Below are positions 3,021 through 10,935 of a DNA stretch of 64,000 nucleotides, in pieces. The notes under the pieces are model-generated. The model worked only from the letters and a program-made list of their open reading frames with translations, was not told the origin of the DNA and ran no database searches. Position numbers and translations under genes: made by a program. The first letter of the stretch is position 1; each line of letters begins with the position of its first letter. The DNA is taken from NCBI GenBank assembly GCA_049325335.1, contig JBMOMC010000006.1:1-64000 (forward strand), given 5' to 3'. The stretch is from Nitrospirota bacterium (GTDB lineage: Bacteria; Nitrospirota; Nitrospiria; 2-01-FULL-66-17).

Positions 3021-3269
3021 ATGAAAAAGATTAGGGTGAAAAAGAGAAGGCGTTGGATAGAGCAAGCGGTCCTGTGGTCACTCATTACGGCTGTTGGCGC
3101 CATTATTATGTTGGGGGTGTTCTATTTTGGCGACAATCGCGGTGGCCACATGTCCACCACCGACACGGAAACCGAACGGGCTTCTCCAGGCGAACCCCAG
3201 GAGGAGTCGATGGACACCGTTTCTTCTGGCGTCGGAGATCATGATCCTCGTGCTCACAATGCGCACTAG
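3021..3269 (+). CDS. small single-TM hypothetical protein with acidic/His tail
   Basis: Basic N-terminus, one hydrophobic helix, C-terminal DHDPRAHNAH; weak RBS. Confidence 0.45.
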   Translation: MKKIRVKKRRRWIEQAVLWSLITAVGAIIMLGVFYFGDNRGGHMSTTDTETERASPGEPQEESMDTVSSGVGDHDPRAHNAH

Positions 3270-3388
3270 GCTGGCGATAGGTTTGGTCGCCTCAGCCATT
3301 GTTGTTTGGGACGCCCACTCGCGAAAACCGTCCTCGTCCCTTGCGATACAGGCGGTTTCGCATACGCGTCACCGGGGAATACCGCGCG

Positions 3389-3417
3389 TTGACTTTCAGT
3401 CACTTGTCGAGTAGGGT
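3389..3417 (+). promoter_or_regulatory. putative sigma70 promoter for the leader ORF-czcCBA operon
   Basis: TTGACT (3389-3394), 17-nt spacer, TAGGGT (3412-3417); small dyad TGACT-TTC-AGTCA overlaps the -35. Confidence 0.5.
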
Positions 3418-3435
3418 TGGATACCGACACCGGCG

Positions 3436-3846
3436 ATGAAGAGAGACATTCCCGTGCGATCAACATATCATCGGTCATCAGCCATCGGGATTTTGACCCT
3501 GTTGGCGGTTTTGATCCTGGCGCCATGCCTGCACGCGCAGGGGACGGAGATCGTCGAACCGCACGCGCCGGCGTCGCATGCCAGCGATCGGGATCCGTGC
3601 TGTTTTGATTCCTATACCCATCGGTTCGTTGAATCGCATCCGCCGTGTGCCGATGCCGTGACCGTCGCGCGGGGCGCCTTGGACCGAGAAACCACCCAGC
3701 CAGTCACAGCCGCTGTTCCGGTTCCTCTCTCATTACAGGACTGGGACCAAGTTGACGTCGATCTGACGACCCCGTTCCGCGAGGAACGCGGCTTCAAAGC
3801 CCAATCCGCCTCCCTGTATACCCTGCACCGGCAGTACCGTCTCTAA
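3436..3846 (+). CDS. exported His/Cys-containing leader protein upstream of czcCBA (candidate regulatory uORF)
   Basis: Signal-peptide-like N-terminus, HAPASH..DPCC..H..HPPC centre, C-terminus LYTLHRQYRL shared with 10368-10721. Confidence 0.7.
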   Translation: MKRDIPVRSTYHRSSAIGILTLLAVLILAPCLHAQGTEIVEPHAPASHASDRDPCCFDSYTHRFVESHPPCADAVTVARGALDRETTQPVTAAVPVPLSLQDWDQVDVDLTTPFREERGFKAQSASLYTLHRQYRL

Positions 3847-3956
3847 ACCCGTCTCCGCACCTCAACGCTAGGTAGGTTCGACTCAGCGTTCCCGACCAGG
3901 GTCCGCGGCTACGTTGCACGCGCCCGGGTCTGGACCCCTTTGCTGCGGAGCGTTTA

Positions 3957-5303
3957 ATGACCAAGGATCTTTCCACACGACGAGTGTTTGTCGGTTTGGT
4001 GTTTATGATGTCTGTGGCGGCCTGGAGTCGGCCGGTCGTTGCCGAGGACCGCGCAACTCATGAAACGCCGCGTGCCGTCAACGTTGAAGAAGCCGTTGAA
4101 ACAGCGCTCCGGCAAAACCCCGAGTTGAAAAGCCGGGAGCAGGAGCGGGCGACCGCCCAAGGCGTGCTGCTGCAGACGGGGGCGTACCCCAATCCGGAAC
4201 TCGATCTGGACCTGGAGACTGATCGGTTCTTCGCCGGAGACGGAGAAGGGCGACGGTCGATCGGTATTACCCAAACCATCGTGACGGCCGGCAAGCGAGG
4301 TCAACGTCAGGACAACGCCCGTCTCGGCGTCACGATGGTCGAGCAGACTGTCGACGACGCGAAGCGGCGATTGATCGCGGAGGTCGAGGACGCGTTCTAT
4401 CGGCTGCTGTTCACCCAGGAGCGCATGACGTTCGCGCGTGAGCAGATCGACCTGGCCAACCGCTTGGTTGTGCTCAGCGAGGGGCGCTTCCGCGAAGGGT
4501 TCGCTCCTGAAATGGACGTGACCCTTGCCAAAGTCGAGTACCACACCAGAGTGCAGGAGACCGTGGCTCTCGAACAGGAACTGGTGGATGCCCGAGCGGC
4601 CCTCAACACGCTGATGGGCCGGGCCGCCGAGGAGCTGATCACGGCCCAAGGCACTCTGCGCGCGGCTCCCGTTGTCATGAAGCAGAACTCCGCCCTTCAG
4701 AATGAGGCGCTCGGACGGAGGCCCGATCTCCGCGCCTTGACCGTTGAATCTGAACGAGCGGAGGGTGAGGTCGCGCTCGTTCGAGCGGAGCGCGTTCCGG
4801 ATCTGGCTGTCTCGCTCGATGTGACCGAAGAGCGGACCATCTTCGACGAGCCGGGTCTCTCTGACAGCGACCGGCTCTTGGGGGTAAAGCTCTCGATCCC
4901 GCTCCCGCTGTTCGACCGCAAGCGAGGGGAGTTGATGGCGGCGCAATCGCGTCTGCGGCGAGCCGAATCCGAACGCGCGGCCTTGAAAGCCCGCATCGCG
5001 CAAGAGGTCCATGTGGCAGTCGCCCGCATCGCCTCGGCCGAAGAGCGGCTCCACCACTTTGAGAACGACGTGGTGCCCCTCGCCAAAAACAATCTCGATC
5101 TCACCCGACAGGCGTACGAACAAGGGTTGGCCGGGATCCTCCAGATCATGGAGGCCCAGCGGCGATTCGCGGAGACGCAACTCGGTTATCTCGGCGTGCA
5201 GTATGAGCACCAAGTGGCGCTGGTGGCGCTGGAGCGAGACATCGGCGGCCGGATCGGTGGAACCGCACCCATGAGTCGCCCAGACGAAGGAGACGGGCCA
5301 TGA
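3957..5303 (+). CDS. czcC: CzcC/TolC-family outer membrane efflux protein
   Basis: Signal peptide, ALRQNPEL, YPNPEL, LSIPLPLFDR, QAYEQG motifs; first gene of an OMF-MFP-RND operon. Confidence 0.88.
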   Translation: MTKDLSTRRVFVGLVFMMSVAAWSRPVVAEDRATHETPRAVNVEEAVETALRQNPELKSREQERATAQGVLLQTGAYPNPELDLDLETDRFFAGDGEGRRSIGITQTIVTAGKRGQRQDNARLGVTMVEQTVDDAKRRLIAEVEDAFYRLLFTQERMTFAREQIDLANRLVVLSEGRFREGFAPEMDVTLAKVEYHTRVQETVALEQELVDARAALNTLMGRAAEELITAQGTLRAAPVVMKQNSALQNEALGRRPDLRALTVESERAEGEVALVRAERVPDLAVSLDVTEERTIFDEPGLSDSDRLLGVKLSIPLPLFDRKRGELMAAQSRLRRAESERAALKARIAQEVHVAVARIASAEERLHHFENDVVPLAKNNLDLTRQAYEQGLAGILQIMEAQRRFAETQLGYLGVQYEHQVALVALERDIGGRIGGTAPMSRPDEGDGP

Positions 5304-6334
5304 AACGATGGACGAACGTGAGGAGATTCGGATGGCGGGTCATTATCGGCGTGTTCGTGTTGGTCGTTGCGTTGCGGATGGGAAGTGCCTATCCGGTTCG
5401 CGCCGATGAAGGGCACACCCGTGCCGAGTCCAAGACAGAGCAGCCCCATGCTGACACCAAGGAGGCCGGCGAGCCGGACGGTCATGCCGCGGATGAAATG
5501 GAAGGCATTCGCCTGAGCGACGAGGCGAAACGCAACATCGGCCTGACCGTGGAACCGGCTGCGGCCCGGACGATCCAAAAGGTCATCAGCATCAACGGCG
5601 TCGTGAAACCCCAGGCCAACCGGTTGGCGGCCGTCGGGCCCAAGACCGAGGCCATCGTGGAGCGCGCGCTGGTCAATCCCTGGGATCGCGTGAAGCAAGG
5701 GCAGCTCTTGGCCGAGTTGCGGAGCCGGCAGTTCGGCAACCCGCCCCCGTTGATTCCGCTCACCGCGCCGATCGCGGGCGTGATCTCCAAATGGGATGCC
5801 AAGGTCGGCGAGGCCGTGGGGCCGGGCTCGGTGCTGTTCGAGATCATCGATCCCTCGGTCATGTGGGTCGAAGGCGATCTGCCCGAGCACGAATCGCAGC
5901 AGGTCCGGGTGGGGCAGACCGCCCGCGTCAGCGTGGTGGCCTTGCCCGACCACGTGTTCGAGGGACGCATCGTCCGCATGGGCGGGATGGTCGAGCCCGA
6001 GAAACGCACGGTGCACGTGTGGGTCGAGGTGCCCAATCCCCGCTATGAGCTCAAGCCGGAAATGTTCTCGCAATTGGCGATCGTCGTGGGCAGCCGATCC
6101 CAGGTCCTGGCGATTCCCAAGCAGGCGGTCCTCCGCGCCGGCGGCGAGTTGGTGGTGTTTGTCGAAGCAGGAGACGCGTACCGTCGCCGCAGCGTGGCTA
6201 CCGGGACTCAGGATGACCGCTACGTCGAAATCGTGCGAGGCCTTGAGCCGGGCGACCGCGTCGTCACACAAGGCCACTACGAACTGCTGTCCTCGATTGT
6301 GATCAAGGGCGGCGTGCAAGAACACGGGCACTGA
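5300..6334 (+). CDS. czcB: CzcB-like RND periplasmic adaptor (apparently lacking the alpha-hairpin)
   Basis: His/acidic N-terminal linker, VKQGQLLAEL..LTAPIAG lipoyl halves, LKPEMF, GLEPGDRVVTQG; ATGA overlap with czcC. Confidence 0.85.
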   Translation: MKRWTNVRRFGWRVIIGVFVLVVALRMGSAYPVRADEGHTRAESKTEQPHADTKEAGEPDGHAADEMEGIRLSDEAKRNIGLTVEPAAARTIQKVISINGVVKPQANRLAAVGPKTEAIVERALVNPWDRVKQGQLLAELRSRQFGNPPPLIPLTAPIAGVISKWDAKVGEAVGPGSVLFEIIDPSVMWVEGDLPEHESQQVRVGQTARVSVVALPDHVFEGRIVRMGGMVEPEKRTVHVWVEVPNPRYELKPEMFSQLAIVVGSRSQVLAIPKQAVLRAGGELVVFVEAGDAYRRRSVATGTQDDRYVEIVRGLEPGDRVVTQGHYELLSSIVIKGGVQEHGH

Positions 6335-6346
6335 GGAGGATGCGGC

Positions 6347-9300
6347 ATGTGGTCCAAGATCGTCGACTTCTCGCTGAAGAACTGGTTGCTCGTGGTCGCC
6401 GGGGCGCTGCTCGTGCTCTTCGCGGGCGCTCGCGTGGCGTCGCAGATGCCGGTGGACGTGTACCCCGATATCACCGACCCGCGGGTCACGATTCTGACCG
6501 AGGCTCCGGGCTGGTCGCCGGAGGAGGTCGAGGCGCTGGTGACCTTTCCCCTGGAAAGCGTGTTCAACGGCATGCCGTTCGTGACCCGTGTCCGGTCCTC
6601 CTCGGGGATCGGGCTCTCGGTGGTGATCGTGGAATTTGCGTGGGGCACCGACGTGTTCCAGGCCCGACAGATCGTCACCGAGCGCCTGGCCACCGTGAAG
6701 CTCCCTGCAGGGGCCGAGGCGCCGTTCATGACGCCGATCGCGTCGCGGCTGGGCGAGATCGTCGAGTTCGCGTTAGTGGACGAGAAGAACAGCCTCTCGC
6801 CACTGGAGATGCGGGATTTGGCCGACTGGGTGATCCGGTTTCGGCTCCAATCAGCCGGAGGCATCGCCAATATCCTGAATATGGGCGGGTTCGTGAAGGA
6901 GTACCAGGTGGTCGTCCATCCGGTGCACCTGACCCACTACGGCCTCTCCCTCAGTGACGTCTTCGAAGCCCTCGAGCAAAGCAATCTCAACGCCGCGGGC
7001 GGATTCTCCCAGGAGCGGCAGCAGGAGTATCTGATCCGCGGGCTCGGACGGATTCAGACGTTGGCCGATATCGAGAACGTGGTGATCACCACCCGGGACA
7101 GCGTGCCGATCTATGTCAAAGACGTGGCCGAGGTCAGAGTGGCGGGGCCGGCGGTCCGGCGGGGAGCGGGGAGCCTGAACGGCAACGAAGCCGTGCTCGG
7201 GCGAATCGTGAAGCAGCCGGGCACCAACACGCTGGAGTTGACGGCCAAGGTCTTCGGGATCTTCGATGAGCTCGAGACCACCCTTCCGGACGGCGTTCGG
7301 ATCGCCACCGAGTACGTGCAGGCCGAGGTCATTGAACGGGCGATCCGCACGGTGCGGGAGTCCTTTCTCGAAGGCGCGGTCCTGGTGGTGGTGATTCTGT
7401 TCGTCTTTCTGTGGAACCTTCGCGCCTCGCTGATCACGCTGACCGCCATTCCTTTGTCATTGATCCTCGGGGTGCTGTTCATCGCCGTCCAGGGAATGAC
7501 GCTCAATGTCATGACCCTGGCGGCGCTGACGATCGCGATTGGCCTGGTGGTGGACGATGCGATCATCGTGGTCGAGAACATCCACCGGCGCTTGCGAGAG
7601 GCATCGGGCCAGTCCTCGCCGGTGGGGAACGACGCCAGGCGAGAGATCGTGCTGGCGGCCACGAAGGAGATCGTGGGCTCGGTGGTCTACGCCACGATCA
7701 TCATCATGCTGGTCTTTCTCCCAATCTTCGCGTTCAAGGGGATCGAGGGCCGGCTCTTCGGGCCGCTGGCGACCACCGTGATCGTGGCGATGGCTGCCTC
7801 GCTGCTGGTGTCGGTCACGCTCAATCCCGCGCTGAGCTACCTGTTCCTGGCGTCCCAGTCAGGGTCCGTGCACCGCGAAAGCCCCATCCTGGCCTGGGTG
7901 CATCGCTGGTATCGGCCGCTGCTGACCCGCGTGCTCCGGCATCGCTGGCCAGTGGTCGGGATCGTGTTCGTGATCATCGCCGTGGCCGTGGCGCTGACGC
8001 CGTTCGTGGGCAAGGAGTTCCTGCCGATCATGGACGAGGGGACGTACGTGATCAACGTGCGCATGCTGCCCGGCACCTCGCTTGAGGAGTCGTTGCGCAT
8101 CGGCAGACAGGTGGAGCGGGCGCTCCTGGAGATCCCCGAGGTGGTCTCCACCTCGGCCCGCACCGGGCGCGCGGAGCAGGACGAGCACGCCGAGGGCGTC
8201 AACGTGAACGAAATCCTCGTCAACGTGAAGCCGCCGGAGCAGCGCACGCGGCCGCGCGAAGCGCTGCTCGCCGATATTCGCGAGAAGCTGGAACAATTCC
8301 CCGGCGCCGCGACGTTCGTAGGCCAGCCCATCCAACACCGGATCGACGAACTCCTCTCCGGCGTGACCGCGCAGGTGGCGATCAAGCTCTTCGGTCCCGA
8401 CCTCGAGGTCCTGCGCTCCACGGCGCAGAACCTGGCCGCGGCGGTGCGGTCGGTCCCCGGTGCGGCCGACGTGCTGGTCGAACAGCAGGTGGATATCCCC
8501 CAACTCCAGATCCAGGTGGATCGCAACGCCGCGGCCCGCTACGGGCTGTCGGTGGGCCAGGTGTCGCGGTTTATCGAGACGGCGTTCAAGGGAGAAGCGG
8601 CGACCCAGGTCATCGATGGACAACGCACATACGACCTCACCGTCATCTTCGATCAGGCCTATCGCGACGACGTCGACAAGATGCGGCAACTACTCATCGA
8701 CACACCCGCTGGTCCGACGGTGCCATTGGAACGGGTCGCCCAAATCCGCTACGGCAAAGGTCCCAACACCATCAACCGCGAGAACGTGTCGCGGCGGATC
8801 GTCATTCAATCCAATGTCCAAGGTCGGGACCTGGGCGGGTACATCGAGGAGGTGCAGGCCGCGGTAGCGCAGCGGGTCAGGTTGCCGGAAGGGTACTTCG
8901 TGGTCTACGGCGGGCAGTTCGAAGCGCAGCAGGAAGCCATGCGGCAGCTAATTCTCCTGGGCGGCCTGATCCTGGTGGCGGTGTTTCTCCTGCTGTATAT
9001 GAGTCTCGGGTCGGTCACCTCGGCCGTGCTGGTGATGTCCAATCTGCCATTTGCGCTGGCGGGCGGCGTCTTTGCGGTCTTCCTCTCGGGCGGCGTGCTC
9101 TCCATTCCCTCGGCCATCGGCTTTATCCTGCTGTTCGGGATCGCGATCCGCAATGGGATCATCCTGATCATGCACATCAAGACCCTCCGGGAACAAGAGG
9201 GGCTGCCCCTTGAGGAGGCGATCCTGGTGGGCGCGGAGCACCGCGTGAGTCCGGTGCTGATGACCGCGTTGGCTGCGGGCATCGGCATGGTGCCGCTGGC

Positions 9301-9460
9301 GCTGGCGACCGGTTCGGGAGCCGAACTGCTCAAGCCGTTGGCGACCGTGATTGTAGGGGGCATGGTCACCAGCACGGCGCTGACGCTCTTGGCGCTTCCG
9401 GCGTTGTATGACTTGGTGGAGAAACGCGCGTTTGCGTCACCCCGCAGGCCGCCGGCGTGA
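6347..9460 (+). CDS. czcA: CzcA-family heavy-metal (probably divalent cation) RND permease
   Basis: 1037 aa; PVDVYPDI, PEEVEALVTFPLE, AIGLVVDDAIIVVEN, DEHAEGVN, GIAIRNGI, PVLMTA. Confidence 0.92.
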   Translation: MWSKIVDFSLKNWLLVVAGALLVLFAGARVASQMPVDVYPDITDPRVTILTEAPGWSPEEVEALVTFPLESVFNGMPFVTRVRSSSGIGLSVVIVEFAWGTDVFQARQIVTERLATVKLPAGAEAPFMTPIASRLGEIVEFALVDEKNSLSPLEMRDLADWVIRFRLQSAGGIANILNMGGFVKEYQVVVHPVHLTHYGLSLSDVFEALEQSNLNAAGGFSQERQQEYLIRGLGRIQTLADIENVVITTRDSVPIYVKDVAEVRVAGPAVRRGAGSLNGNEAVLGRIVKQPGTNTLELTAKVFGIFDELETTLPDGVRIATEYVQAEVIERAIRTVRESFLEGAVLVVVILFVFLWNLRASLITLTAIPLSLILGVLFIAVQGMTLNVMTLAALTIAIGLVVDDAIIVVENIHRRLREASGQSSPVGNDARREIVLAATKEIVGSVVYATIIIMLVFLPIFAFKGIEGRLFGPLATTVIVAMAASLLVSVTLNPALSYLFLASQSGSVHRESPILAWVHRWYRPLLTRVLRHRWPVVGIVFVIIAVAVALTPFVGKEFLPIMDEGTYVINVRMLPGTSLEESLRIGRQVERALLEIPEVVSTSARTGRAEQDEHAEGVNVNEILVNVKPPEQRTRPREALLADIREKLEQFPGAATFVGQPIQHRIDELLSGVTAQVAIKLFGPDLEVLRSTAQNLAAAVRSVPGAADVLVEQQVDIPQLQIQVDRNAAARYGLSVGQVSRFIETAFKGEAATQVIDGQRTYDLTVIFDQAYRDDVDKMRQLLIDTPAGPTVPLERVAQIRYGKGPNTINRENVSRRIVIQSNVQGRDLGGYIEEVQAAVAQRVRLPEGYFVVYGGQFEAQQEAMRQLILLGGLILVAVFLLLYMSLGSVTSAVLVMSNLPFALAGGVFAVFLSGGVLSIPSAIGFILLFGIAIRNGIILIMHIKTLREQEGLPLEEAILVGAEHRVSPVLMTALAAGIGMVPLALATGSGAELLKPLATVIVGGMVTSTALTLLALPALYDLVEKRAFASPRRPPA

Positions 9461-10367: not shown

Positions 10368-10721
10368 ATGACTCGAGTACCCCGCACCCAGGGAAGCGCG
10401 TTCGGATTGCTCGCTGCGTGGTTCGTCGTCTGTCTCCTCTGCCAGTCATATCCTGTGATGGCCGAGGCACATCATTCGGCTTCCTCCGAGGCCGACCACG
10501 CCTGCACTACCGTGGCGGAGGCCGTTCCCAGCGCTCCTTCCACTCCCAACTTGGTGGGCGAATCGACGCGGAGTACTGACCAGGTTTACGATCTGGTTCT
10601 GACGGCGTCACCACTGCTTGACGGAATGTTCGGGAGTGTAAGTGCGCGATTTCAACGCGACACATCGTCGTCCGTAAGCCACGTCAAGCTCTATCAACTC
10701 AACCGCGTTTACCGTATTTAA
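10368..10721 (+). CDS. exported His/Cys-containing leader protein (paralog of 3436-3846)
   Basis: Signal-like N-terminus with CLLC, HHSASSEADHAC, C-terminus LYQLNRVYRI. Confidence 0.7.
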   Translation: MTRVPRTQGSAFGLLAAWFVVCLLCQSYPVMAEAHHSASSEADHACTTVAEAVPSAPSTPNLVGESTRSTDQVYDLVLTASPLLDGMFGSVSARFQRDTSSSVSHVKLYQLNRVYRI

Positions 10722-10827: not shown

Positions 10828-10935
10828 ATGGGGCGTGCCTCATCGGTGACCGTGATCCAACTGGCTTTGGCGGCAACCGGTTTTCTGATCAACGTTTCTG
10901 GGAAATGGTCCAGTCGACGCCTAATGACGGCGTGA
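10828..10935 (+). CDS. 35-aa small ORF (possible truncated signal-peptide remnant) downstream of the second leader
   Basis: GAGGAG at 10816-10821 then ATG; MGRASSVTVIQLALAATGFLINVSGKWSSRRLMTA. Confidence 0.3.
   Translation: MGRASSVTVIQLALAATGFLINVSGKWSSRRLMTA

Follow-up and report, generated by a model that had tools for sequence, protein, structure and literature searches.

How the translation of a heavy-metal export operon might be governed by a short reading frame of no recognized family lying directly ahead of it is the question raised by a locus in the 64,000 nucleotides of Nitrospirota DNA analysed here (contig JBMOMC010000006.1, positions 1 to 64,000; referred to as the window). In a preliminary description of this DNA the reading frame had been taken for a candidate leader that would stall the ribosome and so free the start of the operon, by the logic of the copper leaders CruR and CutF but with a different C-terminal motif.

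The leader gene and the operon behind it

The leader ORF (3436..3846, + strand) encodes 136 aa and is followed by a gap of 110 nt to the ATG at 3957, which confirms the coordinates given earlier. Its product matched no Pfam family up to E 10 and no NCBIfam family, and 11 homologues with 60-77% identity were found. Residues 13-34 (3472..3537, +) form a signal-peptide-like hydrophobic helix (hydropathy 3.0; residues 16-35 are 88% identical), and a helix at 13-32 was also predicted in a low-confidence AlphaFold model. This hydrophobic N-terminus suggests that the leader is exported. It is followed by a His/Cys cluster (H43, H48, C55, C56, H62, H68 and C71; 3562..3648, +), a candidate metal site situated 65-94 residues from the C terminus. 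The residues of the cluster are invariant in 12/12 aligned proteins, and the His/Cys region is 77% identical across the 11 homologues. Cys residues occupy positions 31, 55, 56 and 71. Besides the N-terminal helix, the AlphaFold model contained a helix at 127-134 and no folded domain (mean pLDDT 53.7, on a shallow alignment); about 107 residues, a long disordered spacer, separate the hydrophobic helix from the C terminus. Some members among the leaders have a single Cys, and in all 20 leaders analysed a Cys lies 62-73 residues before the end. A search of 1.84 billion representatives with a profile of the subfamily alignment returned 4 proteins only, which implies that the N-terminal parts of the leaders are lineage-specific.

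The leader ends in a proline-free tail, residues 126-136, which together with the TAA stop (3811..3846, +) constitutes a candidate termination-arrest element with the pattern LYxLxxxYR[LI]-stop; the predicted helix 127-134 falls within it. The expected conservation of the tail was borne out, as the last 11 residues are 99% identical among the 11 homologues, versus 43% for linker residues 96-125. The tail is not RAPP-like, as had been noted, and Pro-Pro is absent from the last 30 residues; within the subfamily, one of nine loci (G001) has a Pro-Pro inside the last 15 residues. The penultimate residue is Arg in 19/19 tails and the third-last is Tyr in 18/19. As this Arg is spelled by four different codons, selection at the protein level is indicated, whereas the residue conservation among Nitrospirota is partly circular because many members were retrieved using the motif itself. 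Two further observations concern the nucleotides of the tail. Its third codon positions are nearly invariant within the subfamily, where a small hairpin is predicted (3823-3835 in the window), and TAA is the stop codon in 16/20 leaders versus 89/314 background genes.

Upstream of the leader a sigma-70-type promoter (TTGACT-17 nt-TAGGGT; 3389..3417, +) is predicted from the sequence, leaving about 12 nt ahead of an ATG that has no SD. It stays under the threshold of the promoter scan, but TTGACT and the TAnnGT box are kept in 8/8 aligned homologous loci. Across the -35 box lies an inverted repeat, TGAC-N5-GTCA (3390..3402), a candidate operator that is perfect in 6/8 of the aligned loci and has one mismatch in the other 2. 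Between a CusA-type gene (16-2835) and the promoter, an ORF of 82 aa (3021-3269) with one hydrophobic segment and no Pfam match was seen.

The target operon (3957..9460, +) consists of genes for an OEP (3957-5303), an HlyD-type adaptor (5300-6334) and an RND protein of the CusA/CzcA family (6347-9460; TIGR00914, 991 bits versus a cut-off of 701). It had been named czcCBA; this holds in so far as a TolC-CzcB-CzcA-type operon is present, but 'czcC' serves as a family label only. A second leader of the same tail class is found at 10368..10721 (+), and behind it lies a remnant ORF of 35 codons (10828-10935). At locus L062 an intact 392-aa Metal_resist protein follows a leader related to the second one, and in G001 the counterpart of the remnant has 24 codons and is followed by a MerR-like gene.

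Tails and prolines in related leaders

Of 45,021 reading frames in the genome, 4 end in the strict tail, two in the window and two on contig C7. All four are small, have a hydrophobic N-terminus and are located within metal-gene clusters. The anticipated over-representation of the tail at the C-termini of small, predicted-exported ORFs preceding metal genes was thus found. Among 26 OEP loci of the class that were picked without the motif, 11 have RAPP/RPP leaders, 4 have leaders with this tail and 2 end in Leu/Ile-Ile; no leader was seen at the remaining 9. Since the tail alternates with RAPP/RPP before OEP genes, it takes a place otherwise occupied by known arrest motifs. In relatives, tail leaders precede OEP genes, multicopper oxidases, a membrane protein followed by a YHS P-type ATPase (a Cu-ATPase locus), and a DUF326 cluster. 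The subfamily of the window's leader, too, is found ahead of multicopper oxidases (loci L108, labelled Nitrospiria, and L246).

Every OEP gene of the genome that was checked has its own small exported-type leader, each with a different ending. Those other endings are Pro-Pro with a variant tail, His-Pro-Pro and Leu-Leu-Ile, and a RAPP leader stands before another operon. These leader loci are situated on C1 near 24966 (-) and near 137700, on C6 near 96700 and on C2 near 214381 (-). When the mixed alignment A3 was run against 201 genomes of the phylum, 5 weak new matches were obtained, one of which is a true new leader (G318). This leader (L240), before an OEP gene, has an RGPP motif and then a hydrophobic tail, a composite of both types. 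A degenerate DNA pattern of the tail matched 45/251 genomes of the class, the reversed control being at least as frequent, and 10 of the 21 pattern regions inspected were rejected as chance matches or ends of other genes. At L076 (G034) a second tail-like ending occurs in another frame about 450 nt upstream of the leader stop, cut by the contig end; these are possibly tandem leaders. In the order of G429, 9/30 OEP loci have leaders, all of the Lys-Pro-Pro type and none with this tail. Uniform Cys-rich leaders ending in Lys-Pro-Pro-Gln/His-Asn were observed at L279-L286 and L294; in eight of these the chosen start lies 114-127 nt past the stop.

Looser forms of the tail occur in other phyla. 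A DNA pattern scan of 26/64 parts of the genome collection gave 119 loci, 114 of which were dropped. The five likely real ones belong to Flavobacteriales, Weeksellaceae, Omnitrophota, Nitrospiria and one unassigned bacterium. The Weeksellaceae leader (L130) matches the NCBIfam family HYC_CC_PP (NF047658), known from Bacteroidota, and of 15 it is the only member to do so; the window protein was not matched by this model (cut-off 28 bits) and has neither HYC nor a terminal PP motif. Similar tails were nevertheless seen at the stop in 9 of 16 HYC_CC_PP loci. In 6 loci 2-3 residues are added after the tail, which is therefore not always stop-anchored, and 1 locus has none. In most of these loci xAPP or xSPP precedes the tail at a variable distance. 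In Omnitrophota a leader was found directly upstream in 8/30 adaptor loci, 7 of the 8 leaders being located by the neighbouring gene and not by the motif. Arg-Ile or Leu-Ile closes each of these 8, and each contains a Pro-Pro located 30-57 nt ahead of its stop. The other 22 loci showed no leader directly upstream of the adaptor, most being leaderless because the OEP gene stands in front.

Relatives outside the lineage of the window mostly retain a Pro-Pro, and some relatives fall within the published CutF-like set. The earlier suggestion of an undescribed class needs refining in that the tail is not restricted to this lineage and also ends many HYC_CC_PP proteins and Omnitrophota leaders, in which it stands behind a Pro-Pro. 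In a literature largely without subscription journals, no paper was found on this tail or under the name HYC_CC_PP; Bacteroidota clusters ending in it may be among the 29 whose logos make up Figure S6 of PMC9973294.

CutF of Rhodobacter capsulatus (PMC9973294; bioRxiv 10.1101/2025.02.05.636593) is, in the available text of these sources, likewise a small Sec-exported Cys/His leader, followed by an intergenic stem-loop that hides the SD of a metal-detoxifying gene (PMC9973294). OEP genes are the commonest neighbours listed for the CutF-like set in the accessible part of that paper. CutF stalling is described as needing a PPP motif and EF-P, in contrast to the window leader with its proline-free end. 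Besides, the window leader has no match to DUF2946 (PF11162, up to E 10), its Cys residues are found 66-82 positions before the C terminus and its geometry points to the stop codon. According to the sections of Ozturk 2023 (PMC9973294) consulted, membership of the CutF-like set requires Pro-Pro within the last 15 residues. The window leader complies with the length (<150 aa) and with the distance to a same-strand gene lying downstream (110 nt; the rule is <=1000 nt) and deviates in the prolines. As to the rule of an N-terminal signal peptide, what was seen is a strong hydrophobic helix (13-32). CzcI proteins without a proline motif are noted in the same portions of the paper, hinting at proline-free cases.

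CruR of Bordetella pertussis, a DUF2946 protein, resembles the window leader, as far as the available account (PMC9426467) goes, in being an exported-type uORF that ends in a conserved motif and stands before a metal gene and a long intergenic region. The window leader differs in having no CxxC, no RAPP and no 45-residue spacing, and in having an exporter as target. An Atlas look-alike annotated 'putative DUF2946' (score 0.96) shares no common Pfam with it. Precedents for proline-free termination arrest are CliM (PMC13183943) and TnaC and PepNL (PMC11890864). In the parts of the sources seen, CliM (uC_KYxIW, Clostridia; PMC13183943, PMC10987492) forms helices in the tunnel, acts via the residue before its last and opens a stem that masks the SD, and the penultimate Arg23 of TnaC is described as blocking RF2 (PMC11890864); Arg135 of the window leader is penultimate too. 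Its conserved residues lie within about 12 of the stop codon, as in termination-arrest peptides. These peptides, by the same accounts, monitor YidC or tryptophan and not metals, and the parallels are analogies with no evident sequence relationship.

Predicted pairing of the post-stop RNA with the ribosome-binding site

Between the leader stop and the OEP start a closing helix is predicted, of which the 5' arm (3844..3859, +) comprises the stop-codon arm (3844-48) and the anti-SD (3853-59), and the 3' arm (3944..3959, +) contains the SD (GGAG) and the OEP start codon. Two inner hairpins (3865-3889 and 3891-3933, within 3864..3933, +) bring the arms together. CTCCGCA (3853-3859) is complementary to TGCGGAG (3944-3950), and their proposed pairing had a mean pair probability of 0.97-0.98 in five folding windows. 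The extension TAAAC/GTTTA (3844-48/3952-56) was recovered with a pair probability of 0.56-0.88 and the inner stem AACGCT/AGCGTT (3864-69/3885-90) with one of 0.85, whereas the inner stem GGGTCC/GGACCC had to be abandoned (probability 0.0), 3891-3909 pairing with 3916-3933 in a different register instead. Positions 3840-41 pair into the start codon region. This predicted fold would hide the OEP gene's ribosome-binding site. In a relative, the interior of the helix has diverged and both flanks are kept (joint 3860-3938). No Rfam match was obtained for the region 3250-4050 up to E 1. Among sequencing runs, none from RNA was listed as holding the sequence.

The overall fold is modestly better than shuffles (z -1.67, 11/200). 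As the whole fold is unremarkable in this respect, the specific pairing between post-stop RNA and RBS was examined instead. Among 314 other same-strand gene pairs in the genome, taken from crude in-house gene calls, 5 have at least 5 RBS bases paired with the stop region; the value for the window is 9.1. One of the 5 is itself a leader ahead of another OEP gene.

Each post-stop 18-mer was then paired with the RBS of its own locus and with those of other loci, and the duplex energies were compared by permutation; start codons were picked by SD score or by eye and the loci are not fully independent. For 18 tail leaders the cognate energy was -12.5 versus -9.5 kcal/mol (0/20000). The 19 proline-ending leaders gave no cognate effect (-8.4 versus -8.6 kcal/mol; 12844/20000). 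A cognate effect was present in 14 HYC_CC_PP loci (1/20000), in which the post-stop RNA thus fits its own start region as in the tail leaders. When six windows were tested, the signal appeared only in +1..+18, both for 10 Nitrospirota lineages (81/20000) and for 8 Omnitrophota loci (54/20000). This supports the claim that anti-SD and SD change in concert between unrelated loci. Within the subfamily of the window the permutation test was null (9047/20000). When its 9 loci are aligned, pairing of the helix amounts to 90.5%, and two-sided changes are seen in 3/7 pairs; 7/500 and 14/500 shuffles did as well, and all slid controls were lower. Covariation among these loci is modest (score 34/500). 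The SD-hiding stem-loop is a prediction with comparative support.

In full folds, at least 5 RBS bases are paired with post-stop RNA in 6/8 Omnitrophota and 7/20 Nitrospirota tail loci, versus 0/19 proline-ending loci, in 7 of which the RBS is paired with the final codons; a separate count gave post-stop pairing in 8/20 leader loci. Two loci lose the post-stop pairing when the folding window changes. It is absent from the subfamily of the second leader (4/4), from both loci at which the window's subfamily precedes an oxidase, and from G034 and G079. The RNA tests left out the tail ORF of G036 (no identifiable downstream gene), L101, L130, L183, L222, L233 and L294, as well as L060 (the leader of L059) and L248 (the leader of L065). 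In two Bacteroidota loci (L223, L224) an AU-rich post-stop arm was seen to form a nearly perfect pairing with the sequence upstream of the following start codon; Bacteroidota are not known to have SD sequences.

With the stop codon in its A site, a ribosome extends to about stop+6 to +10. Because the match to the own RBS is restricted to post-stop +1..+18, the stop codon is where this geometry would place a pause. The Pro-Pro of the Omnitrophota leaders, at 30-57 nt before the stop, is too distant for a ribosome held there to cover the post-stop anti-SD. In the model, a ribosome several codons before the stop leaves the helix closed. In the free RNA, opening the RBS costs 14.3 kcal/mol; covering the RNA as far as the stop lowers this to 11.4, and covering it as far as stop+10 lowers it to 5.2. 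Under ribosome cover the modelled SD accessibility rises about tenfold, from 0.03 to 0.25-0.37. The opening is partial because other folds re-pair the SD. Hence the idea that a ribosome at the end of the ORF covers the anti-SD fits as to position, the anti-SD lying where a ribosome on the stop codon or adjacent to it is needed, and holds incompletely as to the modelled release of the SD.

The geometry is equally suited to normal termination, as an ordinary terminating ribosome sits at the same place. This makes plain long-range translational coupling the main rival: any terminating ribosome would briefly open the helix, and the tail would be kept for another purpose, such as clearance in the periplasm by a protease or PDZ recognition. 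Its aromatic-x-hydrophobic C terminus presumably does resemble protease-recognition tails, and CutF is described as rapidly degraded in the available text of PMC9973294. However, tail and RAPP arrest motifs replace one another at the same place before the genes, and coupling leaves the invariant His/Cys cluster unexplained. Furthermore, conservation of the tail reaches 10-11 residues back, further than in known degrons of 3-4 residues. Coupling without arrest is consequently held to be unlikely.

A stop-codon pause as the proposed switch

A conserved leader-plus-RNA switch at this locus is regarded as real, and arrest and a response to metal are its presumed means. That the leader is a cis-acting, CutF-like ON switch whose proline-free tail pauses the ribosome at its own stop codon is considered rather probable. 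The nascent leader would be exported co-translationally through Sec, and the His/Cys cluster, which lies 65-94 residues before the end, would have just arrived in the periplasm when the stop codon enters the A site. Without metal, translocation would pull the tail out, termination would be quick and the helix would re-form over the SD and the AUG. Metal binding would prolong the pause at the stop, so that the helix is melted and translation of the pump takes place. This ON polarity is suggested by the target, which is an exporter, and by the working of CutF.

A tail that arrests but senses export capacity or thiol redox rather than metal, by the logic of SecM, MifM and CliM, would be compatible with the signal peptide and the long disordered spacer, a Sec-monitoring layout in the accessible parts of PMC10987492, and with the single Cys of some members. 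This is thought quite improbable, as the identified targets are all metal-handling and none is a Sec part, the His/Cys residues are invariant in the subfamily and the position of a Cys relative to the end is kept in all leaders analysed. It is very unlikely that the leader gene makes a free metal-binding protein of the periplasm or a modulator of the pump (the role proposed for CzcI), with the helix merely dampening translation: the predicted export, the richness in His/Cys, the position as first gene of the operon and the CzcI clusters among the Atlas look-alikes of the second leader (score 0.92, a lead only) would agree with it, but no folded domain is predicted, unrelated targets follow the same leader subfamily and the post-stop RNA fits the RBS of each locus. 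Just as remote is control in the reverse direction or at transcription, with metal relieving a default pause or a paused ribosome masking a Rho site in the C-rich post-stop region, since exporter and detoxifier targets should rise with metal and the specific RBS pairing accounts for the post-stop pyrimidines (at least 9 in the first 12 nt in 16/20 leaders versus 29/314 background pairs); CruR does operate so, through RAPP and Rho (PMC9426467, as far as available), whereas control in the window appears translational and not Rho-dependent.

The CutF-like ON switch with a pause at the stop codon is thus preferred. The leader likely shares the working of CutF while departing from the proline rule of the CutF-like set, arrest, metal response and polarity being the conjectural parts of that likeness. 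More tentatively, and without our calling it probable, the aromatic-Leu-xxx-aromatic-Arg-aliphatic-stop tail may be an undescribed termination-arrest module of at least three phyla (Nitrospirota, Omnitrophota and Bacteroidota). Many 'CutF-like' and HYC_CC_PP proteins whose pause is now ascribed to Pro-Pro would then in reality owe it to the tail, which would link metal binding in the periplasm to a block of peptide release without need of EF-P. As the window leader has no Pro-Pro, it offers a clean natural test of arrest by the tail alone.

In the portions of the literature at hand, the metal-sensing leaders tested in print (CutF, CruR and the RAPP/RGPP peptides of Streptomyces) pause on prolines, and leader surveys used Pro-Pro or RAPP as their filter. 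If true, a stop-anchored tail free of proline would represent a second chemistry for the same metal switch. The large, unstudied HYC_CC_PP family would gain a function, and heavy-metal resistance operons an extra layer of control, seemingly invisible to searches for transcription factors.
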